A DNA stretch of 52,023 nt. It comes from a virus. Taxonomy: Duplodnaviria; Caudoviricetes. The position numbers and the translations under genes are program-made. A model generated the notes under the pieces. The model made no database searches, was not told the origin of the DNA, and saw only the letters and a program-made list of their open reading frames with translations. Of this stretch, positions 7,740 through 43,288 are shown in pieces; within the stretch, counting starts at the first letter, position 1; each line of letters begins with the position of its first letter. The stretch is taken from positions 1 through 52,023 of the IMG/VR virus record IMGVR_UViG_3300038675_000398. One strand, written 5' to 3'.

Positions 7740-7943
7740 TTATTTATCTTTGGTTTCTATGCTCCACTTTATAAAGTATCTGTATATCATATACCCATTC
7801 AGGGCAAAGTAAAGAGTACCGCATATCCCAAAAATGGTTGCGTTTCCGATCCATCCGGACACAAGGGCCAGGATTGCCAGGATTGCCCATGCAAACAGGG
7901 CAAGTCCTTTAATTACTGTTTCTATTCCAAAATCTATCTTCAT
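7740..7943 (-). CDS. small two-TM membrane protein
   Basis: 67 aa with two hydrophobic segments and a basic C-terminus; fits tightly between neighbours. Confidence 0.55.
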   Translation of the reverse strand: MKIDFGIETVIKGLALFAWAILAILALVSGWIGNATIFGICGTLYFALNGYMIYRYFIKWSIETKDK

Positions 7944-11785: not shown

Positions 11786-12310
11786 TTATCCTACATTTTC
11801 TGTTTGTGGCTCGGCTACTGGTGCCGGAGCAGGAGCCGGTGCCCCAACAAGGTTATCCTTCATGCACTTAATCGCCTCTGTAAGCTTCTTCAATTCTTCT
11901 GCAGCGTCCATGGCATTTTCCGGGATCTGTGCGGCCTTGCTCTTGGCATCTCGTAGGTTTTCACGTACCGACTTAAACTCGGTAAGGCAAGCCCCCAGGG
12001 AGCAAAACATTACGCCTACCGGAATTACTAGGCCGCTTTCCGTAAAGGCCATAGAGACTATTATAATGGCTATATCAATAACGATCCCGAAATAATACAC
12101 CTTGGTATAATCTCCGAACTTGATGAACGTCTTTTTAAGGCCGCCACTGTTTATTACCTGGTTCTTGGCTTTAGCTTTGCTTATGCCGGTCTTAAGATCT
12201 ACCATGGATGCTATAAGCATCAATACGGCAAAAAGAACGATAAACACGGCCTCTGTTATCAGGTTACGTGTGGCTACCTCTATTAAATGGTCGGTTTCAT
12301 AACTAATCAT
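11786..12310 (-). CDS. phage holin (phage holin 4-type)
   Basis: 174 aa; TM segments flanking DLKTGISKAK...INSGGLKKTFIK, then EFKSVRENL, the pattern of this holin family. Confidence 0.75.
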   Translation of the reverse strand: MISYETDHLIEVATRNLITEAVFIVLFAVLMLIASMVDLKTGISKAKAKNQVINSGGLKKTFIKFGDYTKVYYFGIVIDIAIIIVSMAFTESGLVIPVGVMFCSLGACLTEFKSVRENLRDAKSKAAQIPENAMDAAEELKKLTEAIKCMKDNLVGAPAPAPAPVAEPQTENVG

Positions 12311-12978
12311 GTCAAATGTGCTTTGGCAAGGTTAAAATAAGTTTCTGCGTTTTGGTCCTTAAAAGTCGCCAACACAAGTCCGGTGAGATAAGACAATATG
12401 GCATTCTCCAGATATCTGTTAATACTTACATATTGCTTGTTGTCCTCTGTTTCAATCTTGGGGATCGGAAAGTAAAGAAGCTTTCTAACATAGTCCTCTC
12501 CGCTTGCCGATACTCCCGGGGCTTCCCTCAAGGAGTAATACTGCAAATACGGTCCATTATCTCCGTACCTAAGAACAACTGCAGGTCGCTGATAGGTGCC
12601 GCAAACATAGGGATCGTTTTGCTTTGCCGCTTCCAGGCTATCCTCTGGGATAAACTCTGTAACGGTATAATTGGAATCGGTGGCTGCTAGGGCAAGTGGC
12701 CTTAGCAACCCCTTTTCCGTAAAGTGTATAAGAATGGTTTTGCCGTCAACCTCTACGTTGTCCTCCTGGCTTAATGAATCTGCGTCTTTTGCGGCTAATA
12801 TATGTGGTGCCGTGCTGTGTATCACGTTTACGGCCTTCAGAATGTTGGCCTCTATGATATGATCCAGGTCCTGGCTGTCTGCATCTGTGAGAATCTCCAT
12901 AAGTGAGCTATTCGGCTGCAATTCGTCTATTGCAGCCCGAACGAACCCAATTATATCAGACGTAAACAGCTTTATCAT
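12307..12978 (-). CDS. putative head-tail adaptor / virion protein
   Basis: 223 aa; helical N- and C-termini around a beta core; located downstream of the capsid gene. Confidence 0.45.
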   Translation of the reverse strand: MIKLFTSDIIGFVRAAIDELQPNSSLMEILTDADSQDLDHIIEANILKAVNVIHSTAPHILAAKDADSLSQEDNVEVDGKTILIHFTEKGLLRPLALAATDSNYTVTEFIPEDSLEAAKQNDPYVCGTYQRPAVVLRYGDNGPYLQYYSLREAPGVSASGEDYVRKLLYFPIPKIETEDNKQYVSINRYLENAILSYLTGLVLATFKDQNAETYFNLAKAHLT

Positions 12979-13424
12979 TCCTCAAAAACAACATTGGGAA
13001 ATACAAGATTGTTTTCTGCTATTCTATTCTTAATGGCGGTCAGGCCATTGAGACCTTGGGGGCTAACGCCTATTACGGTTTTCAGGTAATACCTCACACC
13101 ATTAAGGTCGGTAACATCTTCTATGATGTTTTGTTTTGTCTTAGCTTCCGGGATGCTGGCCGGCTTCTTGCTCTTAACCACAGGGGCATCCGTTTCCTTA
13201 ATAGGATATACGGCAACCAACCGTATAGGGCCCTTGTTAAACCTTGGATCGTTTTCAATGATCGCCTGGATAACCGGATCTGCGGTTGAAAATGAAGCCG
13301 GTCTGTCTTCTCCAAAACTAGATCCGCCCTTAAACTCTACTTTGAGTGATGCGTTTCCTGTTTTGAAATATAGGATTGCATTGTTTATGCCCGGTAATCC
13401 GTATGTTCTTCTGCTTCTGCTCAT
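12975..13424 (-). CDS. hypothetical virion-associated protein
   Basis: 149 aa directly downstream of the capsid gene and terminator. Confidence 0.55.
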   Translation of the reverse strand: MSRSRRTYGLPGINNAILYFKTGNASLKVEFKGGSSFGEDRPASFSTADPVIQAIIENDPRFNKGPIRLVAVYPIKETDAPVVKSKKPASIPEAKTKQNIIEDVTDLNGVRYYLKTVIGVSPQGLNGLTAIKNRIAENNLVFPNVVFEE

Positions 13425-13488: not shown

Positions 13489-15075
13489 TCAGGCAGTTAT
13501 GATACCTGAGAATTCTTTCCAAACGGTATTCTCAAGGTCATAGACCAGGATCGAACCGGCAGGCCAGCTGCCAATAGCAGCGGTCAGATAGATTCTCATG
13601 CCGTCAGGCAGGGTTTCGCCAGCTTCAGCTACAGGGAGCTCATCTACAGAAGTGGCCCAGGAGGCGTCAACAACTTTTTCAGACATAGGGATAATCAGGT
13701 TGGATGGCCCTACCATAACGCTGTTAAAGCCTTTCAGGGCAATACAGTCAATCTGTTGGTAGATATCCCTGGTGGCCTCCCGGTTCTCACCGGCACCTTT
13801 CTTCATATCCACATGCTGTTCCTTGTTGTCCACTTTGACGTAGCGTACAGCATTCTTAATATCAATGACAAAAGCAAACTCGGAGTACCCTACATCATCC
13901 AGGGTGGGATCCCATTTGAAGTTCAAAGTTCCAAAGGTGGTTTTGAACGCCTTAATGTCAATACCCAGCACCGTATTAGCGGTAAAGGTTACGTCTTTAT
14001 GCCTTGTGAAGTCAATGTTAAGCAATTTCTCCATGAAGTTTTTGCCGCAATAAACACTTGCTTCGTTGCTTACAGCGTATTCAGTAAACTGCATTTTGCT
14101 TATGGCAATCAGATCTTCATAGGTAATCTTATCCAGGTATGCGTACATGGACTGGATCTGCCTTACAACGCCCTCGGAGAAATAGATATACTCCTCTCCC
14201 ATAGTGTCGCTGACTTGTTTTTTCACCCTGTATTTCTTGCCGATCCATGCGGTACGTGCGCATTTACGCCTGTGGTTGTACAGGGCATTGTCTTTCACGT
14301 CTTGTTTTACAAAGGGCACTTTCTTGGCAATCTCCAGCCAGTGGTCTGTCAGGACAATGTTGGTGATCTTCTTCTGCAAATAGACAGTTTTGGGCCTGGG
14401 TTGGTAGTTCTCAGGAGCAACGTGCATCTGTGATTCAGAACAAGCATTGGAGCATACGATAAGCTTTGATCCGCTTGCAATGGCAGGAATCTTGGCTGTG
14501 CCACCCTCAATGACCGGGTTAATGGCTTCAACGGTAATACCGCTATCGGAAGAAGCGCTAACAAACAGCATCAACGATCCAGATACATTGGCTCCGGTTT
14601 CATCATATCCTGCCACATCCGGAACGGATATAGTGGAATATTTGGGGAACATACGGTAGTTGGTGCTTGCTATAGGCAAGGTTGCGGTATTGGTGGCTGT
14701 TTTTGCCAGATCATCGTTTGTCTCACATTCCAGGATTGCGGAACCACTTGCGTAGTGCTCAATCTCATAACCGGTTACGCTAGACTGCCGGGCTTCCTTT
14801 CGGATATCGGTGTCTAAGGGAAACTTAAACGGCCGGAATTTGGCAATAAACTGATCCACCTCCGGTTCGGCAAGATCGCCTTCACGTATTTGACCGGCGC
14901 TTGCTACCTCTCCTGTCAGGTCGGTATTGATGCCTTTATCATCGGCAACGGCACCGGTGGTATCTGCCGCCATAGCGACATCAAAACTTGCCCCGAATGC
15001 CAGGGCAAAGACCAACAGGATCAAGCTCACAAAGCTTATCTTATTGGATTTCAGAAAAGAAAATAGTTTTCTCAT
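13489..15075 (-). CDS. major capsid protein (HK97-fold, SU10/DUF5309-like) with N-terminal hydrophobic leader
   Basis: 528 aa; follows an acidic scaffold-like gene and precedes a terminator; capsid-like segments (PLDTDIR; YLQKKITNI; FSEGVVRQI; GIDIKAFKTTFGTLNFKWDPTLD). Confidence 0.75.
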   Translation of the reverse strand: MRKLFSFLKSNKISFVSLILLVFALAFGASFDVAMAADTTGAVADDKGINTDLTGEVASAGQIREGDLAEPEVDQFIAKFRPFKFPLDTDIRKEARQSSVTGYEIEHYASGSAILECETNDDLAKTATNTATLPIASTNYRMFPKYSTISVPDVAGYDETGANVSGSLMLFVSASSDSGITVEAINPVIEGGTAKIPAIASGSKLIVCSNACSESQMHVAPENYQPRPKTVYLQKKITNIVLTDHWLEIAKKVPFVKQDVKDNALYNHRRKCARTAWIGKKYRVKKQVSDTMGEEYIYFSEGVVRQIQSMYAYLDKITYEDLIAISKMQFTEYAVSNEASVYCGKNFMEKLLNIDFTRHKDVTFTANTVLGIDIKAFKTTFGTLNFKWDPTLDDVGYSEFAFVIDIKNAVRYVKVDNKEQHVDMKKGAGENREATRDIYQQIDCIALKGFNSVMVGPSNLIIPMSEKVVDASWATSVDELPVAEAGETLPDGMRIYLTAAIGSWPAGSILVYDLENTVWKEFSGIITA

Positions 15076-15100
15076 GTTTGTATTGGTTTGGTTGTGTTAG

Positions 15101-15841
15101 TTATGCTAAGAATGGATTGTAGGATTTCTTATTTGGTTTTTTCTCCACGTCTCCTGCCCCGGATCCTGTTAGGGTAGGGGGTACACCAGCTGGCGTTTCG
15201 TCCTTTTTCAGCTTTTCTTCAATCTTTGCGTTCCGCCCCCGGACTTCTCCTACTCGCTGAGCTTCGGCCACATCAACATCATAGTTAAGGGCTTTAGCAA
15301 CCATGTCAAAGGTTTCTGGTTTAATAACATTGACAATACCGTCCAGGATTATCTGGTGCGCTGCGTCAAAGATCTTTACCGCATCTTCATCACCCAGGTT
15401 GTGTTCTTGCTGATACGCTTCCAGGGTGGCAAATGTAGCCTGTAGGTTGTCATCAGACTGCTGTTTTAGCTCTTTGCTTTTGCCTACATTCTCCAGCCAC
15501 TTGCTGTAGCTCTGTGCGAATTTATCCTTTTGCTCCGGATCATCCAGGGCAGCCTTGAATTCGTCTCCAAAGTTTTCCATAAGGTAACTTATAGGATCGC
15601 CACCGTCTTTCCATACGTTAAACAGCTCTGCGGACCGGGGATCGGAAGAAAAGAGATCTACCAGCTTGCGGCTTTCTTCTTCATACTTGCCTATCTTGCC
15701 GTCTCGTTCTTCTTGCTCCTTGGAAATGAGATCAAAAACGGCATCATCATCCTCGTAATTGGCATCAGGGTATTTGCCCTTCAGCGACTCCAAATAGAGT
15801 TGCCTCTTTGACTTTTGTTCAGGACTTTCGTTATCTTTCAT
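15101..15841 (-). CDS. capsid scaffolding protein
   Basis: 246 aa, acidic and helical, with a Pro/Gly low-complexity C-tail; immediately upstream of the capsid gene. Confidence 0.65.
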   Translation of the reverse strand: MKDNESPEQKSKRQLYLESLKGKYPDANYEDDDAVFDLISKEQEERDGKIGKYEEESRKLVDLFSSDPRSAELFNVWKDGGDPISYLMENFGDEFKAALDDPEQKDKFAQSYSKWLENVGKSKELKQQSDDNLQATFATLEAYQQEHNLGDEDAVKIFDAAHQIILDGIVNVIKPETFDMVAKALNYDVDVAEAQRVGEVRGRNAKIEEKLKKDETPAGVPPTLTGSGAGDVEKKPNKKSYNPFLA

Positions 15842-15876
15842 ATTATTAAGATTGTTTTTGCCATACTATTGGTAAA

Positions 15877-15919
15877 CAAAAATATAGCTCTTTACTGGCC
15901 CTATATGTCTAAAAATTCC
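15877..15919 (-). promoter_or_regulatory. late promoter for the scaffold-capsid-tail operon with upstream 13-bp box
   Basis: Minus strand GGAATTTTTAGAC (15919-15907), 22 nt spacer, TATTTTTG (15884-15877) matching the Bacteroidota -7 consensus TAnnTTTG. Confidence 0.6.
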
Positions 15920-15937
15920 ACATTGGCCTATGTGTTG

Positions 15938-15953
15938 TAACTTTGCGTAAACC
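15938..15953 (+). promoter_or_regulatory. promoter for the terminase island
   Basis: TAACTTTG (-7 box) followed by CGTAAACC; the same CGTAAACC follows the -7 box at 43318-43311. Confidence 0.55.
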
Positions 15954-15972
15954 TTAGCCACGCTTTTATGTT

Positions 15973-16407
15973 TTGCGTACTAAAAGTGAATTTACAGAAG
16001 ACCGGGATATAGATTTACTCCAAGTCTTCAATGATGTTGTAAGGAACTACAATGTTAAATCTCAATGCGAGGCGCTACGCATTGCGCTTGACAAACCCTC
16101 AAAACGATATTATGTAACGCCGGAGTGCGTTTGTAAAGCCATCTCCCGGATACGCCGTGGCGATGATCTGCCGGAAATGAAACCTTCCAGCCGGCTTATG
16201 TATTTTGAACTCTACCGGCTGTATTGCGAAGTAAAAAGCAGAAAACCAGCACTACCAAACAACCAGGTTTGTGAATTGATCGTTGAGCTACCTGCGAGCC
16301 GTTTCTTTGTGTCTATGGGAACGGCGGTAAAGATTATTAACCGACAAAGAAAGATTGAACAATGCAAAAAGCTAAACCTATTATCACAATATCGGCACTC
16401 ACGATAA
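15973..16407 (+). CDS. basic two-repeat protein, putative DNA-binding (late regulator or small terminase candidate)
   Basis: 144 aa, TTG start; internal duplication PSKRYYVTPECVCKAISRIRR / PASRFFVSMGTAVKIINRQRK. Confidence 0.55.
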   Translation: MRTKSEFTEDRDIDLLQVFNDVVRNYNVKSQCEALRIALDKPSKRYYVTPECVCKAISRIRRGDDLPEMKPSSRLMYFELYRLYCEVKSRKPALPNNQVCELIVELPASRFFVSMGTAVKIINRQRKIEQCKKLNLLSQYRHSR

Positions 16408-16868
16408 TATACCTGGTGTCTCTGTTTGTTGACGTTCCCGGTCCCGGGTATTCCAGGGATAACCTCTGGCCACATTTTTATTATATGTTTTTCCATGCCA
16501 ACGTATTTCATTTGGCCTTAAACTGCCTGGGGGCATATTTCCTGGTCCGGGAGATCAAGCCGTTGATTGCTGCTTACCTGATATCGGTAGCCCTGTCATT
16601 TATCCTATATGCCAAATATCCCACCCTGGGATTCTCTGCACCATTATTGGTCCTGGTTGGCTATTACGGCAATTTGTTAAGCCGGAATCCCTTTAGGGAA
16701 CCCCGGCTACTTATGGCCTATTCAATCTTGATTGCCGGCTTGTTTAATCCAAAATTAAACGGCCTCATACATATTGCCGCCATGCTTTGCGGCATTCTCC
16801 TGTCTTTGTTGAACAACATAATTGCACGTTTGCGGTATGACTATAGAAGGGTTGGTAAAGGAAAATAA
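16362..16868 (+). CDS. rhomboid-family intramembrane serine protease
   Basis: 168 aa, multi-TM; YMFFHANVFHLALN (HxxxxHxxxN), GFSA (catalytic GxS) and IHIAAMLCG (catalytic His helix) in rhomboid order. Confidence 0.75.
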   Translation: MQKAKPIITISALTIIYLVSLFVDVPGPGYSRDNLWPHFYYMFFHANVFHLALNCLGAYFLVREIKPLIAAYLISVALSFILYAKYPTLGFSAPLLVLVGYYGNLLSRNPFREPRLLMAYSILIAGLFNPKLNGLIHIAAMLCGILLSLLNNIIARLRYDYRRVGKGK

Positions 16869-18918
16869 GATCCGTTACACGAAACTACTGGCTGACTACA
16901 ATCCCCTCACCGGGGAAGGCGCTCCATTGGAGCGTAAGCCATTGGTTATTGAGGATCATCCTTTACAAACCCAACTTGTTCCAAAAGAGATGTTTAGTAA
17001 CCGCCTGGTCAGGTCGCTGGCTAAAGCAAAGAGTATTGAGCGCTTTGTTACAAGGGATCTAAAACAAAACTTTAGTGACGAAATGCTTGACCGGGTGGTT
17101 AAGGATCTGGCCATAGTTAGGAACCGTTACGATTTTTGCTATTGGGCCTATACCCTGGTAAAGATAAAACCCAAATTAGGTGGGGATGTTGTCCCCTTTA
17201 AGCTCAATTACCCACAACTTAAGATGCTTACCGAGCTGGAAGACCTTCGTCTGGCCGGAAAGCCCATCCGCATCATCCTACTTAAGGCAAGGCAGTGGGG
17301 TGGATCTACCCTGGTGCAGATCTACATGGCCTGGATCCAGATATGCCATAAAACGGCCTGGTATTCCACAATCATTGCGCAAACAAAGAATACGGCAGCC
17401 AGGATTATGGAAATGTATTCAAAACTGATTGCCAATTACCCGGCCTGGGCACTTGACCTGGAAGATGATAACGAGCTGCGTCTGGCCCAATATGGTAAAG
17501 CGGCGAACGACTTTATCATAAAAGACAAAAAGGGCAAAACGGTCCGGGACTCAGTTATTCAGATCGGATCCGTGGTGGAACCTGACAATATACGTGGGGG
17601 AGACTCGGCCATGGCGCATTATTCTGAGGTGGGTGTATGGAAAGACACCCCTGGCCGGAGACCGGAAGACTTAATTAAATCCGTATCGGGTGGCATCCTG
17701 AACATTCCTTACACCCTGGAGGTGATGGAAAGTACGGCAAAAGGGACCGGCAACTATTTTCATAGGGAGTGGAGCAGGGCAAAAGAGGGCATGAGTGATA
17801 AAACCCCGGTATTCATTCCCTGGTATTACATTTTCAATGATACCATGCCGGTAAAAGATTCTGTGGATTTCGCAAAATGGCTGTTGCACTGTAAGGAGAT
17901 AGGAGATAACAGCCCTGCAGGATACCCTGATAGCGGAAGGTATTACTGGTGGCTTTGGGAGCAGGGGGCAACCTTTGAAGGTATTAGCTGGTATAGAGAA
18001 AAACGTAAGGCTTATGACAGCCATGCGGATATGGCATCTGAAGCTCCATCTGACGACATAGAGGCATTCCAGCACTCCGGTAGCCTTGTGTTTGATCCTT
18101 ACGATATCAATGAATTGCGCAAGGACTGCATAGAGCCGGCTTTCGTTGGTGATATATATGCAGACGTGGTAAGTGGCCGGGATTGTCTAGAAAATATAAG
18201 AGTCAAAGAGGATCTTGCCGGGGGAAAGCTAAAGATCTGGTCCATGCCGGAAAAAGACCTGGATATTGCCAGGCGGTATTTGGTGGTGGTAGATATCGGG
18301 GGAAGAAGAACAAAGGCGGACTATTCCGTGATAACCGTATTTGATCGCTTTTTAATGATAATGGGCGGCAAGCCGGAGGTGGTGGCACAATGGAGAGGCC
18401 ATATAGACCATGACTTATTAGCATGGAAAGCCACGCAAATATCTGCCTTTTACAATAACGCATTGCTGGTTATTGAATCCAACACCCTAGAGACAAAAGA
18501 CCAGGAAAGGGATGTTGACGGTGATCAATCCGGGTATATCCTTGATTTGATTGCAGAGGTGTACGACAATCTATATGCCCGGGAAGTTACCGGAGACGTT
18601 ATTAATCAGCCCAAGGTTACCAAGTGGGGCTTCCATACCAATACGGCCACAAAACCGGCCATTATCGGACACATGGTTTCTTGTGTGCGAGACAAGAGCT
18701 GGGTAGAAAGGGAGCAGGAGGCTTGCAACGAAATGGCCTTTTATGAGAAAAACGAAAAGGGTGTCTTTGCTGCCATTCCCGGAAAGAAAGATGATAATGT
18801 TATGACCAGGGCCATTGGCCTGTGGATCTGCTTCAGGGTTATGGAAATGCCGGCTTACGTTACAGCTGGAAAATATAAACGTATGGAGCGTAAAATACAA
18901 TCTGAAGCCACAATTTAA
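16837..18918 (+). CDS. terminase large subunit
   Basis: Start probably MTIEGL at 16837. ATPase motifs LKARQWGGST, HYSEVG, ESTAKG; RNase H-like nuclease VVVDIGG...DYS...IESN...DDNVM. Confidence 0.9.
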   Translation: MTIEGLVKENKIRYTKLLADYNPLTGEGAPLERKPLVIEDHPLQTQLVPKEMFSNRLVRSLAKAKSIERFVTRDLKQNFSDEMLDRVVKDLAIVRNRYDFCYWAYTLVKIKPKLGGDVVPFKLNYPQLKMLTELEDLRLAGKPIRIILLKARQWGGSTLVQIYMAWIQICHKTAWYSTIIAQTKNTAARIMEMYSKLIANYPAWALDLEDDNELRLAQYGKAANDFIIKDKKGKTVRDSVIQIGSVVEPDNIRGGDSAMAHYSEVGVWKDTPGRRPEDLIKSVSGGILNIPYTLEVMESTAKGTGNYFHREWSRAKEGMSDKTPVFIPWYYIFNDTMPVKDSVDFAKWLLHCKEIGDNSPAGYPDSGRYYWWLWEQGATFEGISWYREKRKAYDSHADMASEAPSDDIEAFQHSGSLVFDPYDINELRKDCIEPAFVGDIYADVVSGRDCLENIRVKEDLAGGKLKIWSMPEKDLDIARRYLVVVDIGGRRTKADYSVITVFDRFLMIMGGKPEVVAQWRGHIDHDLLAWKATQISAFYNNALLVIESNTLETKDQERDVDGDQSGYILDLIAEVYDNLYAREVTGDVINQPKVTKWGFHTNTATKPAIIGHMVSCVRDKSWVEREQEACNEMAFYEKNEKGVFAAIPGKKDDNVMTRAIGLWICFRVMEMPAYVTAGKYKRMERKIQSEATI

Positions 18919-19220: not shown

Positions 19221-19574
19221 ATGAAAAAACTCTACAAAAGGATAGCAAAATACTTTGTTATCCTGTACGCCAATCGCATTTATCGGAACCGTGTCAAACT
19301 TGCCGATAAGCTTCATGCTAAAAATCGTACCAGGTACTATGTAGCCCTGGACTATTCAAACTCCAAAAATCTATTGGTAATGAACAGAAAAGGGTTCCGC
19401 AACCTGAAACGTATATTTCAGATCTACGATCCTGCCCAGGGAACACTAAAGTTAAAAGAAGGGGCGTTCTATTTCACTCCCGATGCAAAAGGAAACGGCC
19501 CACTCCTTCCGGTTGAGAAAGAAGCACGCCGTTTGGCCTTTGTGAAATACATGCTGGATCGGTCCCGGCTTTAG
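19221..19574 (+). CDS. basic hypothetical protein
   Basis: 117 aa, K/R-rich, A-rich start context; stop overlaps the portal stop convergently. Confidence 0.65.
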   Translation: MKKLYKRIAKYFVILYANRIYRNRVKLADKLHAKNRTRYYVALDYSNSKNLLVMNRKGFRNLKRIFQIYDPAQGTLKLKEGAFYFTPDAKGNGPLLPVEKEARRLAFVKYMLDRSRL

Positions 19575-21523
19575 GCTGCCAACATCTTCTGTGCTGCCTG
19601 GACGTTTTGTGGATTAGCTGCTTGCCCGGCTTGCTGTACGGCTCCCTGGTCCAGGGGCGCAATGCCTTGTTGTTGCTCTGCGTTTTCCCGGTTGGATTGC
19701 ATGCTTTGTAAAAGAGAATCCGCAAAGGGGAAGTCTCCATGTTCCAGCAACATTTCCAGGGTGATGGCTCCGGCTTTCCAGAACTCAAGCAGCATATCAT
19801 TAGCTATCATGCGGTGTACCGGCGTGGATGCACTTTCCTTGATTGAAAGGTCAAATTCTATATCCCTGGCCTTTTCCGGATCGTATTCAATGATGTTGGT
19901 ATAGGTGGCACCTGATATGTTAATGATTCGTTTATCATCATAATACTGCTGTATAAGCTTCGTTTTCTTTACGGCAATATCTTCCACGAAGGAGCTGAAA
20001 CGGAGCAATAGGGATGATAATGCGGCTGTGCTGTTGGCTGCCTGTTGGCTATAAAGCGCTGCAGAAGTGCCGGAATAGGGCTGCTTGCCCTGCATGGCGC
20101 TATGGACAGACGATATGTCTTCCATCAGGCTTATCTGCAGTTGTACCATGTCTGCGGTATTCAAGGATACGGAGGAACTGTAAAACTGTTTCGGCTCTGG
20201 CACTCCCGGTTTGGGTTTATAAACAATCAAACCATCCACCGAGGACCATTGCTCGGCAAACTCTTCAGGGCTCATGCCGTTTGGGATGCTTCCTTCTGGA
20301 ACCAGGGTTACCCCTTTCGCTCCTGTACGGCGCACAAAATCATCAATGGTAATTAGCCTGTTGATATACCTTTGCTGATCAATAAAGTCCGCTACAAAAG
20401 AGTGTATTTCTCCATCCACAAAAGGATATAGGGACAATACATAGGGATGCGATTCGTGATAGAATGGCGTTTCCCCTTCCAGTAACACGTCTCCCCAGGG
20501 TGTAAGGTATTGGAAAAACCAATAATAGTCTATGACGTATTCATACCGGATCAATGGCACCTCTTCTTCGGGTATTCCGTATTCCTTTGCCATTTTCAAA
20601 CGTGCCTGGTTTTCGGCCTCCACTCCCTTCAGCTCCTCTAATTCTATGCGGTATAGTTCTCCGGTTTCCGGATCGTGGCACCGATACCTGGGCTTTATTT
20701 CTTTGGTCCAAACCTCATAAACCCGGCATAAGCTTTCATCCTGCGGTGAGTAAAAACTCATGCGTCCTTCATCGTGCCGGGTGGTAATATCTTCCACATT
20801 GGCCCCTTTGTCATTAGCCTGGTGCTTATAGATCTCGTATAGCTTCTGGAATGAATCTTCGCTGGTTGAAAACTTGTGGCATAGCTCGTTAAAGGTAAGG
20901 TCATGTATCTGGCCGATCAATGATACATCCCAAAACCGGGGATCATTCATTGTGGAATCAAAAAACATATAATTGGGGTTAGGGATAGTTGTAAATATAT
21001 CTTTCCTTCCGTTACGTACATCTACAGATTCCCGGCAGAATATACCTCCACCGATTAAATAATCCTCAATAAGCAAAGACAAAAGCACTGGCATTTTGTT
21101 TATTTGCCAATTACATTGCAGGGTAGTGGTCATCATCTCTCCCAGGCGTTGTTCATCCCGGTCCCTGGCTTTAGCCGTTGGCTCGGTCTCGGACTTGGTG
21201 TAAAGGCCGGTAACATTGTTTACCAACCTACGGATAAGGTTATTTTTAAGCGGCACATTCCCCTGAGATTTAATGTAATCCGCCTCAGTCATGGTTATTC
21301 CTTTGTGCGTAATGAAATCGCCCCATTGGTCCCCATATACATACCTTTTGCATCGGGCCCTTTCTTGTCTGAATGCGTACAAATTTTCCCAAAGGGTTGA
21401 ACATTTCTCCACTAAGGCCACGTTCTTTTTATCTCCCCCGAACTGATAATGGCGCTGCTTTACGGAATCAATGGGATTTTCCTTTCCGTACAATTTTGAC
21501 AACGGTGTTATTTTCTTTGACAT
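19571..21523 (-). CDS. portal protein (P22-like)
   Basis: 650 aa; RCKRYVYGDQW, LKNNLIRRLVNNVTG, DQQRYINRL, SGTSAALYSQQ and a Gln-rich C-terminus, typical of P22-type portals. Confidence 0.85.
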   Translation of the reverse strand: MSKKITPLSKLYGKENPIDSVKQRHYQFGGDKKNVALVEKCSTLWENLYAFRQERARCKRYVYGDQWGDFITHKGITMTEADYIKSQGNVPLKNNLIRRLVNNVTGLYTKSETEPTAKARDRDEQRLGEMMTTTLQCNWQINKMPVLLSLLIEDYLIGGGIFCRESVDVRNGRKDIFTTIPNPNYMFFDSTMNDPRFWDVSLIGQIHDLTFNELCHKFSTSEDSFQKLYEIYKHQANDKGANVEDITTRHDEGRMSFYSPQDESLCRVYEVWTKEIKPRYRCHDPETGELYRIELEELKGVEAENQARLKMAKEYGIPEEEVPLIRYEYVIDYYWFFQYLTPWGDVLLEGETPFYHESHPYVLSLYPFVDGEIHSFVADFIDQQRYINRLITIDDFVRRTGAKGVTLVPEGSIPNGMSPEEFAEQWSSVDGLIVYKPKPGVPEPKQFYSSSVSLNTADMVQLQISLMEDISSVHSAMQGKQPYSGTSAALYSQQAANSTAALSSLLLRFSSFVEDIAVKKTKLIQQYYDDKRIINISGATYTNIIEYDPEKARDIEFDLSIKESASTPVHRMIANDMLLEFWKAGAITLEMLLEHGDFPFADSLLQSMQSNRENAEQQQGIAPLDQGAVQQAGQAANPQNVQAAQKMLAA

Positions 21524-21527
21524 AATG

Positions 21528-21570
21528 CAAATATCTTTCCTTTTACTATTGTGCTGTTTCCAAATATTCT
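21528..21570 (-). promoter_or_regulatory. degenerate late promoter upstream of portal
   Basis: Minus strand AGAATATTTGGAA, 22 nt, GATATTTG; 10/13 match to the box at 15907 and 43341 with identical spacing. Confidence 0.45.
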
Positions 21571-24550
21571 TAATCTCGCTTCATAAGTTCATCCACCAGG
21601 CGGCCTTTGAGCCGGTTGTAATAGGCATTCAGATCACGTTTCGTTTCATCATCCGGAGCCTCTTTCAGTTCTTTTTCCACATTCTTCACTTCGTCCAGGT
21701 ATTCTTCAAAAACAAGATACCTCTTATATCTGTCCTTATCCTCAAGACTGCGTTGTTGCTTGCTATATTTTTCCGGATCTTGTCCGTATTTAATAACAGA
21801 TTGTCTTACTTTATCGTACTCTTCCTTGTAGTAGTAGTACATATCATTGATAAAGCTATTGGACGTTCTTTCATCGTTATGCTGCAACAATACATTGGCC
21901 AGGGGTACGTTTCGCAAGATCCGCTGATCAGGATCCCATATCATGGACAGGGTTTTTGCTGCTTCATTGGCCGTTGTCAGCGCACCCCCGAAATACCCCT
22001 CAAAGATATGTTCCCACTTGGCCGGGTTGTTCACATCGGCAATAGTAATATTGTTTTCTACCCATCCTTTGGTAACATCATCGCCACCACCAATACGGTT
22101 AATCAATTCGGAAGCACGTACCAGGGCTTTGTTGGTCCCGGCATAAGCTTTTGTAAAGGCAGGATAATAGCGGTTGAAGCTATTGTTTTTGAATATAGGT
22201 CTGCCAGTAAAATCTTCGTTGATCAGGTTTTCAAATAGGGGTGCAACAATATCAGGAACAAGGTTTGCTACACCGGCATTATTACCCACCGGATCCACCG
22301 GCATGACATCCGTTAGCTGCCCCAGGATCTCCCCGGCAATGTTTTTGTTTTTCATCCGACCGGCAGAGGCCATATATGCAATATCTCCAATTCCGTATAT
22401 GGCTCTTAGTTCAATCGGTAATGGAATTGTGACATAAAAGCCATTGCCCCCAACGACCATATTATTACGTCTGATCCATTCGGGCATATCCAGGTATTCT
22501 TCTGGATCGCCACCAAGCGCCATGGCAATTAGCTGGTTGAAGAACGGTATCAATGCACCTGCGGCCAACATAGAAGCGGTGCCAATAGTGAATTTCTTGG
22601 GATTCTTTTTGGATATATTGACAAAGTTGTCCAATCCCTGTATCCCTGCATTATAGAACAGATATGCGGTTCTCAGGGTGCTGGCTCCATAGCCTTGCCC
22701 AGATCCTTTTTTATTAAAGTTTACTGATACGTTCTTAGCATCGGCAATGGATTCTTCCACACTTCTACCCATTTGCCGGCTTGTTGTAAATGCCGTAAAC
22801 CGGCAAATATCCTCTACGCACCTATTGGCAAATCCTATCTGATCAAACATATACCTCAAAGCTTTCTTAAGTGTAACGACCTTGCCCCCTTTGGCTTGCA
22901 ACATAAGGTCGCTCATTATTCGCTTGTATTCATCAACCCTCTTCAGAACGGTATATCCGGTTTCTCCTCCATTGGCAAGAAATTCCTGCATATACATACC
23001 TTCCTGGTTTGTTACGTCAAGCTTGTTTTGTGAGTAATCGCGCATTAGTTTCCAGATGCTGACATAACTACGTGCCAGGTTTGCCCTGAATCTGCGGTTG
23101 TACGCCTTATCCTCCTTGACGTATATATTAAACAAGCTATATATGGTATCCCTGGAGAGGTTACGCAACATAAATTTTGGGGAACGTGTTGTGTAGTTGG
23201 CTGCCAGCCACCGGTTAGCCCTCATGATCTTTTTTCGTATGTCCGATACATCGGGATTAGTCAGTCCATTGATTGCCTGTGCCGCCCTTGGGTTCCCATT
23301 TATAAATATGACATACTCCTTGCCGGCAGATTTTACAATAACGGAGTGCTCCTGGGCTTGCTTCCCTAGTGTTCGGTAGGGAATGTTCAGCCCCTTCATG
23401 GTCTTTTTAGCCATGCCTATCCCCGATAAATCAGCCATGCGCTGCTCAAAGGTCTCATACGCCTGGTTCACTTCCATAGCACTTGCCCCAGGTTCAATAT
23501 CCGGCATAGCCTGTATCCAATCGGGATTTTCTTCGGTCCCTTTGTTCTCATACCACATTTCTCTGACGGAGATCAGGTTGCTTTCATGGTTCAGGGCCAT
23601 GTTCAGGAATTTTTGCTTCATCCAGTTATTATTGCCCTGCTGGATAGCGCTTTCAGCCATTGTCCCTATGGTCGCAAATGGGTCATCTGCCATGGATTTA
23701 CGTCCTCTGGCCGTCAACACCGGGGGAGAAAATGACGATCTGTCAAATTGCAGGTATTCGTAAACATCATCAGCCGTTGTCTCTGAAAAGCCACGTAAGG
23801 GGATGTAATAATCGTACATATCCCTTATGTTTTCATATACGGACCTGGTAAGGATCCCGGTTTCATAGGTCTTATGCAGACTTTTTTTGGTAGCTGCATT
23901 AACCCTGGACCAAAATTCTCGCACTTCATCCATGGCCGCTTCTTCCACCTGGTCCACCAGCTCTTGTGCCATAGCTTCAGCCAGTGCTACATCGGGCAAT
24001 TCTTCCATACTTTCAGACGAAGGGAATAGCGCAGTAAGTCCGGAATAGTCCCTGCCTCTGTAATATTCTACAGTTTCGTCATATTTCGCTTCCAGGCGTT
24101 TGATTTCTTTATCGTACTTGGCTTGGTCTATTAATTCCTGGGCCAGTTTCTTGTCCAGCTCCGCTTTCCATTTTGCGTGCATCTTTTCTGCATCCCTTTC
24201 GGCTAGCTTTATATTCCGCTCCAGGCCATGTTTCGCCATTGCGTAAGTAACAACACTTTGGTATTCTCCATCAAGCTTATCCGCCAAAGAACGTATGGCT
24301 TTTGACATTGGCTCATAGTAATTGGCCATGAAATGCTCCTTCTCGTAAAGATTCTTGCTGCTAATATGGTTCTCGGCTAGATACGCATCTTCAAAAGTCT
24401 GTATTTCTTTTCTGGAAGCCTTTGCCACTTCTTCCTGCAGGATCTTCAAAGACAACATGGAATCCTGGTGTGCTTCCCGGATCTTGTTCATTGTTTCATT
24501 CAGCCTGGCATCATAGGCGTTATTGGCAAATTGTTCCACCTTGTCCTGGG
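21570..24550 (-). other. C-terminal LPD38-like region of the giant protein
   Basis: VNFNKKGSG, LFYNAGIQG, PEWIRRNN, IPLPIELRAIYGIG, NEDFTGRPI, NPAKWEHIFEGYFGG; boundaries approximate. Confidence 0.55.
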
Positions 24551-27500
24551 CAGCGTTCTTGTTGCTGCGGTAGCGTGTATCATTATCGCTATTCAGGCCA
24601 ACACGTCTTCTGATCTGTGCGTCCCGGGCAGCGTCAAACACACCTCCCGGCCCACTTGGATCCGTCAATCGGTCATAACTCCTTTGCAGGATGTAACGCA
24701 AATCTGCATCTGTCAGAACGCTGTCCATTTTAATACCGGCCCTGCGGAGCATATCCATAAAGTAGTTCTTTATCTTTCTCCAAAGGCTTTCGTTCTGATC
24801 GTAATCGGTGCTCTCGGCTAGGGTTGCTAGATATTCTTCGGCAGCTAGCCTTGTATCCCATCCGTTTTTGGCAATTAACTTGTTGATCTCGGCACGCACC
24901 TCTTTACCGGCACTTTGATATACATTGTCCAGGAAACGGTCAAAGTCGGATCCAAAAAGGTTTCTCAGCCCCTTGTGCGCAACTGCCTCATGGAGTAGGG
25001 TGGCAATAGCATCGTCAGCCGTTTTGTGGTTGTCCAGCACAATGGTAATATTGCCGGTTCTTGGTTCATAAAAACCTTTTGCCCTCTTTTGCTTTTCGTT
25101 CTTAAGATCTGCCCGGTTGACAATATTTACTTTTATGTTAAGTTTGTCAACCATGGATTCAAGCCTGTCCCGGGCAATGATCCGTTCCCTCATTGGGGAC
25201 TTCATGAAAGGACGGAACAAGGGCATGCCCCCCGGTACTGATTCTTTCATGGTGTAAGTAACGGGCAATGATTGGACAGTAAAGGTTTGTCCGGATGTGA
25301 TCTTTTTAAGATTGCTGGGCTCTCCGTTTTCAAACAAGACTTCATACCCTGCGTCTTTCATATCCTTAACGTAATCCTCCAGGGCATAATCTCCTTCTTC
25401 GGCCTGGGACTCCATGAAGCGATCCTGGATCTCCTCGGCTTGTATTGATAGATCCAGATCCTCGGTTTGTTCATTATACGCCTCTTTAGCCACAAGCGGT
25501 AATTGTACTTCCTCAACCTTTGCTCCAAATGGTTTACCAAGCTTATTGGCTGCTTTTGGAACAATATTATCGTAAAAGGCTTTCATCCCTTCTCCACCGA
25601 CTTTCAGATCAACACCTCTTAATGTATAAAATTGTGGGTTTACTTTTGAATTTTTTGGCCAATTTAAATTAACTGTTTTATCGGCTCCTTCAATGAGCTT
25701 ATTTGCTAAATCTTTCCCTATTGTATCCTCCATTTCTTGAGGAGTTAAAGTTTTTCCGCTTCTTGCGTATGGCTCAATTTCATCACCTTTACTATCTTCA
25801 AGTATTAGTGAGTATCTTTGAACACCGTCCTTACTTAGTTGAAGTTTTATGGCGGATGCCATGCTTATCTGCTTACTCAAATCATACCTTTCCGCTTGCT
25901 GCTCCCCATTGGTCCAGGCAATCCTATCAAACCCATTCTCGGCTGCATAACGCATCATCCTACGGAGTGCCAGGTTCACCCATTGGCCGGTCTGCTTGAA
26001 TGGCATGTTAGGAACGCCATTCTTCTTTTTCCTTAATTCATACTCCCTATCAATAAGCTGATTTTCTTTTTCATCCAGTTCTTTCATTCTTGGATATTCA
26101 GCCTTTAGGTAGGATATTGTATATTCATTATATGGATCAACCTCTTTTATGTATGCTAATTTTTTATCTCTGATCTTAACCAGCTCGGCAAAAACAGAAT
26201 CGTATTCACTAGCATCACCCTTAAATCCTTTCTTCTTCCCTTCCTGCGCCCAATCTGATTGAATTTCCTCGATGAACAGCACACGTTCACCGTTCACTTC
26301 TCGTTCATTGAAGCGTACATGAGCAAGGATGTTAGGCTCATCGAAGTGCCCGGATTGGAATTTAGTACTGGAACCCCTTAATGCGTTTTCGGTTGCTATT
26401 TCTGCATTTGACCCTGTTGATACAACATTCCCATTTTTATCAAATACTTTATATAAATCACCGAGCTTGTCTAAAGTATATCCTTCTGGCAGTATTTTCC
26501 TTATCGGCATCATCAGCAACAGCTCCTGGTAGTTTTTCCCACCGGGGACGGTGTATTGGGAGTATTTGGGGGCTGGCATTCTTATACTTGCCAACTCAGA
26601 AATTAGATCATTGTTTTTGAATTTCTCTTCTGCTGATAACGGAAATCCATTGCTTATCCAATAAAAAATATCCTTGCCTGGAGCTTGAGCCACCCCAATT
26701 CCTCTATCGTTAAGTTTTTTAATTATTGGAGTTCCTCGTTCTTCCCTATTTATCTTCTCCTCCACCTCAATCTTATTCTGGTCAATCCAGTCCTGGATTT
26801 CAGTTTTAGTTACTGATTTCCCTGTGAATGCGCCATCATAGTCCATCCAATCCAATTCAGCCTGTTTCGCTCCGTTTTTGAGCAACATCGCCTTGAACTG
26901 TTCCGGTGTCCCCTTCTCCTGCTTGATCTTCTCCAGGGCATCCTCTACGGTGGAATAAAAGCCTGCCTGGTTCAGGCTGCGGTATCTAATCGGAGCCACT
27001 CCTAATTGTGCTTGCAGTACAATCTGATCCTCTCTGGCCACATCTTCGGTCTCTTGGATCAGGGTGCGCCTTGCTTCTTCCTCGCTCATACCCATACGTG
27101 TCTGAACGTTCCTGGCTTCCACCTCTCCAGCCGACCTTCTATACGCATCAAACTTATTTTTTGCCACGTGCTCAGGGTCGCTCAAGCTTATTGCTACACT
27201 TGAACCAGGAGCGAAATATTCAATTTGCTGGATTAGGTGTTGTATCTCGTGACCTATTACGCTTAGGACGTCATCGGCGTGTGCCTCTAACGTATCTGAC
27301 GCATCAAGTTTTTCGCCTTCTTTAGAGGACTTGGCCCAGGGATACTCAATATAAATTCCTACGTACCCATCATGGTATATTGACGTTACCCCTTTCATAA
27401 ACCTTCGGAAATTATCTCTAAATTCATCGGTGTACTCGGGGACCATTTTATCATGATTTATAGCTATGGGTATTCCCCTTAGCTCTGGATATGCCTTAAA

Positions 27501-30500
27501 GAGTTCGTCGGCATCTATTGCTTGCTCTAGCTTGCGTGGGCCGTACTGTGTGGTATCGCTAATATCCTTTGCCTTTATTGGAGAAATCTCATACCGCCAT
27601 TTCTTATCCGCTCCTCTTTCCCAGCCGGTAGCCAGACGGATTGCCTTAGCATCCATTCCCTGGTCCTCCATCTCCCTAGCTACCCTCAGATTATCCAACC
27701 TAATCGTAGCATCCTCGGCCCTATCCAAATTCCCTGCGCCTTCCTCGCCAATAAGTCTATAGCGTATTTCGGGATCTCCAGACATGGATAGGGTTACGTA
27801 ATCTTCCTTTCCATTGTCAACAAGGATCTTTTCCACCTCGGCATCTGAAAGCACCCTTTCCACCTTCATAGACCCAGCAATAGGCCAGACCCCGGATCCG
27901 GTGGCATTCGGGTTGGTTTTGAAGTTGTATGCCTCTTTCGGTCCAATAACACGTTCCCTAATCCCGGACCTTTGTCCATTTGGCAGTAGGGTAGTGTTGT
28001 CGCTCTCAGCTTGCGTTTTCTCGCTCATGGCCGGCATAAGCACCTTTGCCCACACCCTGGTTTCTCCACTTTTCCTTACCTTTCCCTGCAAGAACAACGG
28101 AAGATCAACCGCATGGATCCCCGGTCTCTCGGCCAGGTTTTTGCCACCGATCTTTACCGATTGCCTCTCTGCCTTATACCACACTCCTTTCTTAAACCCC
28201 TTCTTCCCGGCTTCGTCTTTAGCGTATAAAGGATAAAGAACACCCGGTTTATTATTGAAATAGCGCATAAGCTTATAGGCTACCTGTGTTTTTTCGGGGA
28301 TCTCTTCTTCCGTTAGCTCTGTGTAGGTGCTAGAACCCTTCTCATTCATGAACTTTTTGGCAGCCACCATATCGTTTAACATGGTTTGCTGCTTTTCGTA
28401 CCGCACTTGCTCATCCAGTAGTCCCTGGGCGGATAGACTCTCGTAGTTGTTTATAATATCTTTGTCCTGTTTTATAGTTAGGACGTCTAATAACTGGGAG
28501 TCAATTAGCTTAAGCCCATCTTTGAGATCCGACAATTCAACGTTATTAAACTGCCTATTTGACGCAAGCATAACATAAATACCATGCTTGCCGACTGCCG
28601 GCCAAATGGTATTTAGCATTTCCGATGTTGACAAATTGCCGTCCATTAAGAAATACCGGCTAACCATAAGCGCTCTATCCAAAATCATAACATGGATCTT
28701 GCCATTAATCCCCCTCTTTTGCCGACTTATAAATTGCGCCACCTTATCGGGTTCGTTTAACTGGATTCTTCGACTTGAAGGCATGTACAATGTCTGTCTG
28801 TCAAAAGCATAAATATCTACCGGGGACACGTCACCCATGTCCTCCTTGCGTGGCCTATCGGGATGGTTGGTAAAGTGTTGTGTAAATTCCGCATACTTTC
28901 CTGTGTCCAGGTTTATGATAATGCCCGGCATAGCTTCTATGCCCATCTCCCTGGCTATCTGGCCAATTCTTGTTTGGCACTTAATGTCATTATCCGAAGG
29001 TTTAAGTGATCCTGAAGGGTGGTTGTGAACCATACAGATTTTTGCTGCGTCAAACTCTTTGATCGCTGCAGGGATACTCTTAAAATCAATAATGGTTGAG
29101 TATTCGTTCCCTGTGGATAGATAAAGCACCCGGTGGTTGTTCTTTTTGTCGATTAGAACAATAAACGCATTCTCGGATGATGCGCTTTCCAGATTTTTGA
29201 ACAAGAAGGCAACGTCTCCCGGCCCGTTTATTTTAGCAGGACCGGTAAGCGGATTACCCATGAAAGTTACGGCGCCGTTATTTGAAAGGACTCTTTCTAC
29301 AGAGGTGAATCCATGATCGATAATCGGATTATAACCGGCCGATTGTTGTATTTTGGCAATATCGGGGTCAGCAACGATGGCTGCGGCACGCTGGGCTGGT
29401 ACGTCTCCGACCTGCTCGTCCCAGGACAGCTGCATTTGGACTGCGTCCTCTTGCAGGATTGAGCTTCTTCCTTTATTGTTGCCATTGTTATCTGTAAAGG
29501 TAGTGCTATTTCTGTATTCATACAAACTTTCTTCTTCCAGGGAATCGGTTGCTGCCTCCGCTTCTTGAGCCATGCGGTACCTATTTTCTCCATTCTCATC
29601 CTGGTCAACATCTTCTTCGTCATTATTAGGAGTATCATCATTCTCTGTTGATATATCTGTTATATTAAGGCCTTCCCCATTTCCCCTCTGGCTATACTTG
29701 GCCTCTTTCTCGGCCAGCTCTTTCCGCATGGCTTTATCATATTCTTCAACTCTTTTTTGCGCAATTTCCAATTCATCTTCTTGATCAAATGGTTTCCCCC
29801 TCCGCTCAAGCATGGCTTGGTTTTCCCTCTGTATATGGTCTAAAGATCTTCTGGCTGTATTTAATTCTTGTTCATAATAAGCCCCTGGAATGACGTTATT
29901 AATAATTTCCTCTACTACTTTGCTTACATAACCTCCCCCAATTGGTTCCTTATTTAATCCTAGCGTTGGTGCGTCATAATATACCTTCCTGTGCATGATA
30001 ATCCTCATGCCATGGAACTTTTGATCATAAGTGGTATCTCTGCTTACAACTGTAGTTATAGTAAATTCAACGCCATTTATCTTTAGGACAACTGGGAATT
30101 TTTCTTTGGTGAAACGATTATTATTCCTGGCGGCCTCTATTGCTTCGTTAAGAGGTTTGTTGACATAATCTTTAATTATCGCATCAAGGCCTAATGCGCC
30201 GCTCACCTTATGGCCTTCGAGATATATTTCCTTGGCCTCTCCGTTAGGGAAGTGTTTTTTGATCTGGCTGACGATATTCTCTAGTTCAGCGACTCTTTTC
30301 TGGCTATCTTGCGTTTTTAATTCATTCCTCCTTAATTGATTCTCAATATATATTTGGTCTTGTTCATGCTGCTTTTTTTTGCTGAGCAATCTTCGCAAAG
30401 CTTTTTCTGCAAAGTTTTTCTTCAAAGCAAATTGGCTACCTGAAAGGTGCGCCACTGTGTCCGTAAATATATCGTCTCCTTCATCTTCTATACTTCTTGT

Positions 30501-42724: not shown

Positions 42725-43288
42725 TTATTTCGTTCCGTCTTCCTTCATCCCTGCGGCCTTCATGGCTGCGGCTTTCTTCTCCGCATCAATGGATCCCTGC
42801 ACTCCGGCAGCTGCGGTGGAGAGGGCAGAGGCTGCCTGACCGGTGGCGGTTGCGATGTTCTGCGCTTTCTGGTTAAGTGTCGCTTGCTCATTTTGCGCAA
42901 GCTGCGCATCCCGGTTCTGGAATTGCGCTTCAATACCTTCCTTGTAGTTTGCTGATTGAGCGGCTATGTTACTCGTTACGTCTCCGATTGTGTTGTTTGC
43001 TTGCTGCTTGGCCAGCGCCGCTGCTTCATCTGTGGTCCCGGCAACGGCCCGGGAGGCTGCAACATTACGCTGATGCTCTAGCAATAATTCCCTGGCCTTT
43101 GTGATTGCTGCCTGGGAATCGGCCCTTTTGGTATAATCTTCATTCATCCTCATATCATACCAGGTGCGATTTTGAGCACGTTGCTGCTTCGTGATTGCGT
43201 TAGCCTCTGATGCTGCTTTTGAGGACTTTATGCCTCCGTATATGGCTGATCCTGCTGCCAGGACACCACCTATAATTGATGCTATCAT
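42725..43288 (-). CDS. putative DNA ejection/pilot protein
   Basis: 187 aa; Gly/Ala hydrophobic N-terminus (MIASIIGGVLAAGSAIYGG) then Ala/Gln coiled coil, as in podovirus ejection proteins. Confidence 0.65.
   Translation of the reverse strand: MIASIIGGVLAAGSAIYGGIKSSKAASEANAITKQQRAQNRTWYDMRMNEDYTKRADSQAAITKARELLLEHQRNVAASRAVAGTTDEAAALAKQQANNTIGDVTSNIAAQSANYKEGIEAQFQNRDAQLAQNEQATLNQKAQNIATATGQAASALSTAAAGVQGSIDAEKKAAAMKAAGMKEDGTK

Follow-up and report, generated by a model that had tools for sequence, protein, structure and literature searches.

A conserved membrane leader on the HK97-fold capsid protein of Bacteroidales phages, and a phage rhomboid that may remove it

We analysed the viral record IMGVR_UViG_3300038675_000398 over its whole length of 52,023 nucleotides (hereafter the window), in which the gene for a 528-amino-acid (aa) capsid protein with a membrane leader lies near the gene for a rhomboid protease. 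The conserved membrane leader on an HK97-fold capsid is the firm and surprising part of our results; heads of this fold are taken to assemble from soluble subunits. The rhomboid is a plausible cutter of the leader and is dispensable in some lineages. A preliminary description of this DNA had proposed that capsid subunits are tethered to the inner membrane and released by the rhomboid in place of a maturation protease. Its observation is confirmed, and its interpretation is partly supported. The source record is a phage (estimated completeness 83%) whose genes encode a P22-like portal and a large terminase as well as a 6598-aa helicase/polyvalent protein and recombination functions (Pfam, PHROGs), and its relatives are Bacteroidales prophages and phages.

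Capsid leader and phage rhomboid

The 528-aa open reading frame (ORF) matches Pfam SU10_MCP above the cut-off (5e-6). Foldseek linked its AlphaFold model (pLDDT 79.6) to the capsids of Vibrio phage VP1 (9in6, 1.4e-19), crAss001 (7qof, 8e-13) and HK97 (1ohg, 3.7e-8), and a sequence comparison of the capsid profile with solved structures gave no match. By this predicted model the protein is HK97-fold, and its fold together with its position after a scaffold-like gene suggests that it is the main virion shell protein. Residues 1-36 form the leader noted in the preliminary description, which is basic and then hydrophobic (KD17 2.6 at residues 13-29) and has G28 and V33-A34-M35-A36 towards its end. 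A homolog search found 330 capsid proteins, and an N-terminal hydrophobic stretch of this layout (basic-hydrophobic-Gly-AMA) is present in all 120 homologs listed, as well as in 80/80 capsid-anchored viral loci. G28 and A34 are invariant across 52 aligned capsid sequences. In the distinct leaders where the motif was found (174 of 181), the part before the helix has a net charge of +2.5 and the 20 residues that follow the site one of -3.6, which predicts an N-in/C-out orientation. None of the partner proteins carries an N-terminal hydrophobic leader (scaffold 0/46, portal 0/42, terminase 0/41, two downstream proteins 0/47 each). Leaderless capsids of relatives start near the predicted cut site, mostly with Met-Ala, which argues that the leader is a separable piece. 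At the candidate site, P4 is V, F, L, M or I in 38/47 leaders, P1 is A or S in 47/47 (partly by construction of the search, with two sites visibly mis-picked), and P2' is mostly Ala. As a separate observation, residues 1-12 often form an amphipathic helix of the pattern M-K-x-hydrophobic-hydrophobic-x-F-L-K in phage and chromosomal copies alike, a tighter constraint than signal n-regions ordinarily show.

The 168-aa ORF narrowly passes the Pfam Rhomboid cut-off (22.8 bits against 22.6). The best PDB matches of its family profile are GlpG (1e-7), and its model has a six-helix core whose top Foldseek rows are all GlpG, at weak scores (best E 2e-3, all above 1e-3). The motifs seen by the first description (HxxxxHxxxN, GFS and a downstream His) are well borne out: H45, H50, N54, G90, S92 and H137 are invariant in 19/19 aligned rhomboids, and the GxS and His are kept in 37/37 genomic copies (31 by pattern, 6 by eye). 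We conclude that the protein is a GlpG-like rhomboid with intact catalytic residues and a predicted protease. Lysines and arginines average 1.8 in loop 2, 2.8 in loop 4 and 4.0 in the C-terminal tail, with fewer than 0.3 in loops 3 and 5; given these charges, the phage rhomboid should be oriented like GlpG, with its active site facing the periplasm. A predicted complex of the rhomboid with capsid residues 1-50 scored 0.01 and is not used for or against any reading. In the window the rhomboid gene lies directly upstream of the terminase gene and overlaps it, as first described, and the capsid and rhomboid genes diverge on opposite strands with 1,287 nucleotides between their starts. A rhomboid match of 1e-9 in one genome (G048) was set aside as a chromosomal host gene among housekeeping genes.

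Leader and rhomboid across relatives

A rhomboid lies within 9 kb of the capsid gene in 22 of the 80 capsid-anchored viral loci, and its apparent absence from a human-gut clade proved to be an artefact of that span: 58/80 loci lacked it within 9 kb, and 27 of 30 records searched had it elsewhere. These whole-record searches, which covered 30 of the 58 negatives and three controls, found a rhomboid in 30/33 records and in 22/22 of those at least 90% complete; the three misses fell in records 74-86% complete. The rhomboid is kept even when moved away from the terminase gene, and terminase adjacency is not constant, which does not support the proposed tie to the packaging motor. The relocated rhomboid adjoins the gene for a 144-aa protein in 5 of the 6 relocated loci read. 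The 144-aa gene moves with the rhomboid in the human-gut clade and is also kept in leaderless, rhomboid-less phages, including ten leaderless loci of the usual layout in which it abuts the terminase gene. Its product, possibly a late regulator, repeats the motif P-x-x-R-(Y/F)-(Y/F)-V twice and is also encoded near the chromosomal capsid module described below.

Loci resembling that of the cultured phage BS-TP4 have the leader in 80/80 cases and the rhomboid in 79/80. The terminase served as an independent anchor (best 80 of 593 matches, half of the collection scanned), and 48 of its loci contained a capsid gene: 33 had leader and rhomboid, one the leader only, 14 neither, and none the rhomboid only. 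Elsewhere in the genomes of the 14 leaderless loci we found no phage-type rhomboid, only weak matches on other contigs of incomplete assemblies. Five more leaderless loci from a 401-genome Bacteroidales sample also had none (0/5), which gives 0/19 leaderless capsids with a rhomboid beside them. The co-occurrence anticipated for relatives therefore stands in one direction and fails in the other. A rhomboid was not seen without a leader, and the leader needs no phage rhomboid, being kept without one in two lineages; the relation is statistically unproven, and more distant discordant cases may exist. A gene for a 117-aa protein was a candidate for a third part of the system, as it occurs in 28 of the 33 leader-plus-rhomboid loci and 0/14 leaderless loci. 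It was ruled out as obligatory: it was not found in 5/5 complete rhomboid-bearing records (a search without a positive control), and it is present in a rhomboid-less clade of free phages. One genome (G050) carries four terminases and two phage-type rhomboids of the window-phage family.

At the level of sequence and model, the fold, the leader, the intact rhomboid and an extra leader motif in rhomboid lineages are established features. By an alignment-free pattern, small-xxx-Gly occurs in 46/54 rhomboid-lineage leaders compared with 2/11 and 2/32 in the two rhomboid-less lineages, and Met-Ala/Ser in 43/54 compared with 4/11 and 3/32; six of the 54 are human-gut rows placed by clade, of which two had no whole-record match or search. 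In aligned leaders, Gly28 is present in 39/40 from rhomboid lineages and 4/16 chromosomal ones, which are also longer (39.6 vs 33.7 residues) and of greater hydrophobicity. The enzyme was lost twice, and each time a helix-breaking motif went with it, as would be expected for a substrate released from its protease, although these are two events.

Possible routes of leader removal

Our preferred reading, held with slightly less than even confidence, is that the leader is a removable membrane anchor, cut by the phage rhomboid where one is present, with host enzymes substituting where it has been lost; we infer the steps that go beyond the sequence features. The leader would likely hold the capsid precursor in the inner membrane with its N-terminus inside. 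A kink at Gly28 and the following linker could let V33-x-M35-A36, which lies 5-8 residues after Gly28, loop back into the periplasm-facing site of the rhomboid. A cut after Ala36, probably made or assisted by the neighbouring rhomboid, would then free the capsid protein for assembly with the cytoplasmic scaffold and portal. The phage rhomboid would be a dedicated but replaceable processor, and where it is lost the leader would either be gone or be longer and more hydrophobic, presumably handled by a host protease. The hydrophobic P4 and small P1 of the candidate site fit the rhomboid motif given in PMC2941825. In the part of PMC2941825 consulted, type I/III proteins are the canonical rhomboid substrates, and type II substrates could loop back if the motif is far enough from the helix. 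A wider proposal, which we regard as tentative and somewhat doubtful, is that HK97 heads are built from membrane-anchored capsid precursors throughout a widespread Bacteroidales podophage family and its domesticated chromosomal derivative, and that most of the phages have a rhomboid of their own to cut a reversed GlyGly-type leader.

Several findings weigh against this reading. With its N-in/C-out leader and a motif after the helix, the capsid protein is arranged in reverse of the canonical type I/III substrates, and P2' is mostly Ala or Thr, not a large hydrophobic residue. Leader and protease both appear to point to a cut at the periplasmic face, which is difficult to reconcile with a capsid body in the cytoplasm; the simple release from a cytoplasm-facing tether first envisaged conflicts with the charge-predicted topologies of both proteins. 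A34-x-A36 is also a signal peptidase I-type site, and Ala36 is kept with the rhomboid (37/40 in rhomboid lineages) and without it (16/16 in the rhomboid-less chromosomal lineage). The free-phage clade, to which the single discordant locus (L258) belongs, keeps the leader in 19/19 loci with a rhomboid in 0/13 records. Two of these records are 100% and 88% complete, and neither had a rhomboid by Pfam (both controls positive) or by a broad unfiltered profile (best E 0.15). Of the 24 leader-bearing loci in the 401-genome sample, 19 lay on contigs without a phage-type rhomboid (one genome had a match of 3e-12 on another contig, in a 357-aa frame). Most such loci are chromosomal, with scaffold, capsid and one or two downstream genes among housekeeping genes. 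Among 27 terminase loci without a capsid gene, 20 genomes were tested (housekeeping context read for five): the capsid gene lies elsewhere on the chromosome, with its leader, in 20/20, one copy being split by a stop, and a phage-type rhomboid was found in 0/20 (control positive). Since two lineages keep the leader without a phage rhomboid, the rhomboid is not an obligatory substitute for a prohead protease, and the idea that it replaces the maturation protease is not upheld.

The trees (all FastTree) also count against a strong association. The 14 leaderless capsids form one clade on the capsid-core tree (1 change). On the terminase tree the leaderless loci are scattered and imply 5 leader changes, so we did not count repeated joint losses as independent. 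On an 81-row tree (16 near-duplicate rows dropped; four human-gut rows scored rhomboid-positive, among them L011, placed by clade though its 86% complete record had no match), the combination of leader and rhomboid is basal if the single distant outgroup, flagged for a long-branch join, roots correctly. This tree has two leader losses and three rhomboid losses within the family, and its 3-4 independent pairs give a sign test that is not significant (p 0.25-0.5). The Fisher p-values for the leader motifs ignore phylogeny and derive from two events.

A cut after Ala36 might instead be made in every lineage by host signal peptidase I or a different host protease, with the rhomboid only clearing the membrane of abundant leader remnants or mis-inserted precursor. 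We think this rather unlikely, even though the window leader has the expected basic n-region, hydrophobic h-region and alanines at -3/-1, Ala36 is kept whether or not the enzyme is there, the leader works without a phage enzyme in two lineages, and the rhomboid-linked motif (A24, G28) sits inside the hydrophobic helix, away from the cut site. Position -3 is Met, Phe or His in 11/47 rhomboid-lineage leaders, contrary to the -3 rule, though many have another AxA two residues further along. Cleavage by signal peptidase normally comes after export, yet the partner proteins have no signals. AxA-Gln occurs in 0/97 leaders, while a Bacteroidetes Q-rule is mentioned in the portion of PMC10367356 consulted. 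It also seems unlikely that the rhomboid targets something else, such as the holin, a host envelope protein or a defence factor, and that its link to the leader reflects shared ancestry and linkage. Both rhomboid-less lineages that keep the leader lost small-xxx-Gly, and a rhomboid accompanies none of the 19 leaderless loci. There was, on the other hand, one joint loss only, and where the rhomboid has left the head genes it has done so together with the 144-aa gene. The leaderless clade of the joint loss also lacks the 117-aa gene, although that gene does not track the rhomboid otherwise. Stenotrophomonas phage DLP3 has a rhomboid among non-structural genes, according to the consulted part of PMC7326821.

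Two further accounts have little probability. The leader might never be cut, or the shell protein might arise from a start at Met35, with a long form in minor amounts anchoring the prohead; Met35 in 42/47 leaders and the Met-Ala beginnings of leaderless relatives fit this idea, which we nevertheless judge improbable. In a start-context matrix, which chiefly reflects A/T richness, the sequence preceding Met1 scores +6.5, like true starts, whereas that before Met35 scores -8.0 and internal Mets score -4.5, so that translation of the leader from Met1 is favoured and a dual start is unlikely. Moreover, some relatives have Ile, Leu or Phe at position 35, with the next Met more than 100 residues on, and the Met35 start was rejected on both grounds. 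Full export of the capsid protein by Sec, with heads assembling at the periplasmic face, is very improbable: it would suit the textbook signal-peptide charge and layout of the leader and the predicted periplasmic active site of the rhomboid, but the scaffold, portal, terminase and downstream proteins are without leaders, and the same gene set is used by leaderless relatives.

Relation to known systems and neighbouring genes

Compared with the GlpG proteins of E. coli and H. influenzae and with AarA and its substrate TatA (PF01694), the window rhomboid shares the six-helix fold, HxxxxHxxxN and the GxS and His dyad, and its candidate site has a hydrophobic P4 and a small P1. It differs in being phage-encoded, about 160 aa long and without extra domains, and in that the membrane helix of its candidate substrate precedes the cut site (type II) and does not follow it. 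AarA trims an N-terminal extension of TatA. The N-terminal pieces of HK97-fold proteins removed by HK97 gp4 (delta domain) and T4 gp21 resemble the piece whose removal is predicted here; the window phage differs in its membrane leader, its separate scaffold-like gene and an intramembrane protease that is dispensable in two lineages. T4 proheads start on the membrane, tethered through the portal. An obligatory prohead protease would always accompany a propeptide-bearing capsid, and two leader lineages have no rhomboid. As the first description stated for the head module, no prohead protease was found in the window (35 ORFs by Pfam, 30 by PHROGs, both halves of the 6598-aa protein). Its lack argues nothing, because the P22-like portal places these phages with podoviruses; P22-type heads need no maturation protease. 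Rhombosortase and GlyGly-CTERM (TIGR03902), in the parts of PMC3237569 and PMC6219818 consulted, likewise pair a dedicated rhomboid with a tripartite signal (Gly-rich motif, hydrophobic helix, basic residues). The phage signal is N-terminal, in reverse order and on a single capsid target, and the phage rhomboid reaches 17.5 bits with TIGR03902, against a cut-off of 84, which places it outside the rhombosortases.

Nixviridae, phages of Porphyromonas gingivalis, also have predicted signal peptides on Bacteroidota phage capsids: one sentence in the part of PMC10367356 consulted attributes them to prohead proteases, and the word rhomboid does not occur in that part. The cultured temperate Bacteroides phages BS-TP4, BKO1-TP3 and BF1-TP2 share the head module, gene order, leader and rhomboid with the window (capsid identity 24%, terminase 46-51%). 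The main text on them in PMC12694917 contains neither "rhomboid" nor "signal peptide". In their records the capsid goes under DUF labels, the terminase is called a tail spike protein and one rhomboid a glycoside hydrolase. The label YajC on a BS-TP4 neighbour was discounted, the protein being acidic, 73 aa long and without a hydrophobic helix. "Rhomboid" is likewise absent from the accessible text of PMC8008677, PMC12694917, PMC12629997 and 10.64898/2026.06.25.734096, as is "phage" from that of the rhomboid review PMC12615303. We found no paper on the pairing of a capsid leader with a rhomboid in a search whose scope excluded supplements, which could hold annotations or virion proteomics.

The novelty lies in the leader, which is demonstrated; its pairing with the rhomboid we infer, and both proteins belong to known folds. 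That abundant gut phages have a conserved membrane leader on their shell protein implies a membrane step that has gone unrecognised, whichever enzyme makes the cut. Intramembrane capsid maturation, if true, would be a step for which we found no published precedent in any tailed phage, and the capsid would be a rare natural type II rhomboid substrate. To our knowledge, few natural substrates of bacterial rhomboids have been described, and a pair of one enzyme and one substrate would offer a clean way to test cleavage in reversed orientation. Cultured phages with the pair exist, and natural leaderless or rhomboid-less variants are ready controls. The viral collection contains 497 stretches that match one relative, which is reported at 31% prevalence in the consulted part of PMC12694917.

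The features of the window are collected in Table 1. In nearly all loci the gene for the 246-aa scaffold-like protein immediately precedes the capsid gene; the protein belongs to phrog_22323, to which PHROGs assigns no function, and has a weak scaffold lead at 0.86. The 149-aa and 223-aa downstream genes stay with capsid and scaffold in chromosomal copies.

Table 1. Head-module genes and neighbouring features of the window
Feature	Position	Strand	Basis and remarks
Probable head-completion genes (two, conserved; 149 aa, 223 aa)	12307..13424	-	after capsid gene
Holin-like membrane protein, rival rhomboid substrate	11786..12310	-	Pfam Phage_holin_4_1 at E 0.003, short of the cut-off
Major capsid protein precursor, 528 aa, HK97 fold (predicted), SU10_MCP-like	13489..15075	-	Pfam, AlphaFold model, Foldseek
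Capsid membrane leader, residues 1-36	14968..15075	-	amphipathic/basic n-region, hydrophobic helix ending A24-x-x-x-G28, V33-A34-M35-A36; putative cut site
Probable scaffolding protein, 246 aa, acidic, without leader	15101..15841	-	position
Conserved basic protein, 144 aa, probably DNA-binding	15973..16407	+	
Minimal six-helix rhomboid protease (predicted), 168 aa	16362..16868	+	S92 (16635-16637), H137 (16770-16772), H45/H50/N54
Large terminase	16837..18918	+	start overlaps rhomboid by 32 nucleotides; ATG at 16837 likely
Basic protein, 117 aa	19221..19574	+	conserved, after terminase
P22-like portal protein, without leader	19571..21523	-	Pfam

The chromosomal copies make up a candidate domesticated element resembling a gene transfer agent (GTA), with the terminase gene in a housekeeping neighbourhood and the genes for scaffold, capsid and downstream proteins elsewhere on the chromosome in 20/20 genomes. 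Its terminase loci include L214, L223, L224, L229, L241 and L242, and its capsid modules are L281, L284, L298, L343-L359 and L333-L342. We found no paper on such a chromosomal element in the literature, and the consulted part of 10.1101/2024.11.15.623857 does not mention Barnesiella. The genomes concerned are recorded under the names Barnesiella, Caccoplasma, Coprobacter and related Bacteroidales. At one locus (L301, G114:C3), in a genome without a phage rhomboid, the capsid gene is split by a stop codon and has an unusually long two-part leader.

Further candidate rhomboid substrates with hydrophobic stretches in the window are a 67-aa protein (7740-7943, minus strand) and a 187-aa protein with a Gly/Ala-rich N-terminus (42725-43288, minus strand). 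The 6598-aa protein (21570-41366, minus strand) combines ddrB-ParB, LPD14, SNF2/helicase, RadC-JAB, LPD23 and LPD38 domains and is a large polyvalent protein of the DarB-like kind.

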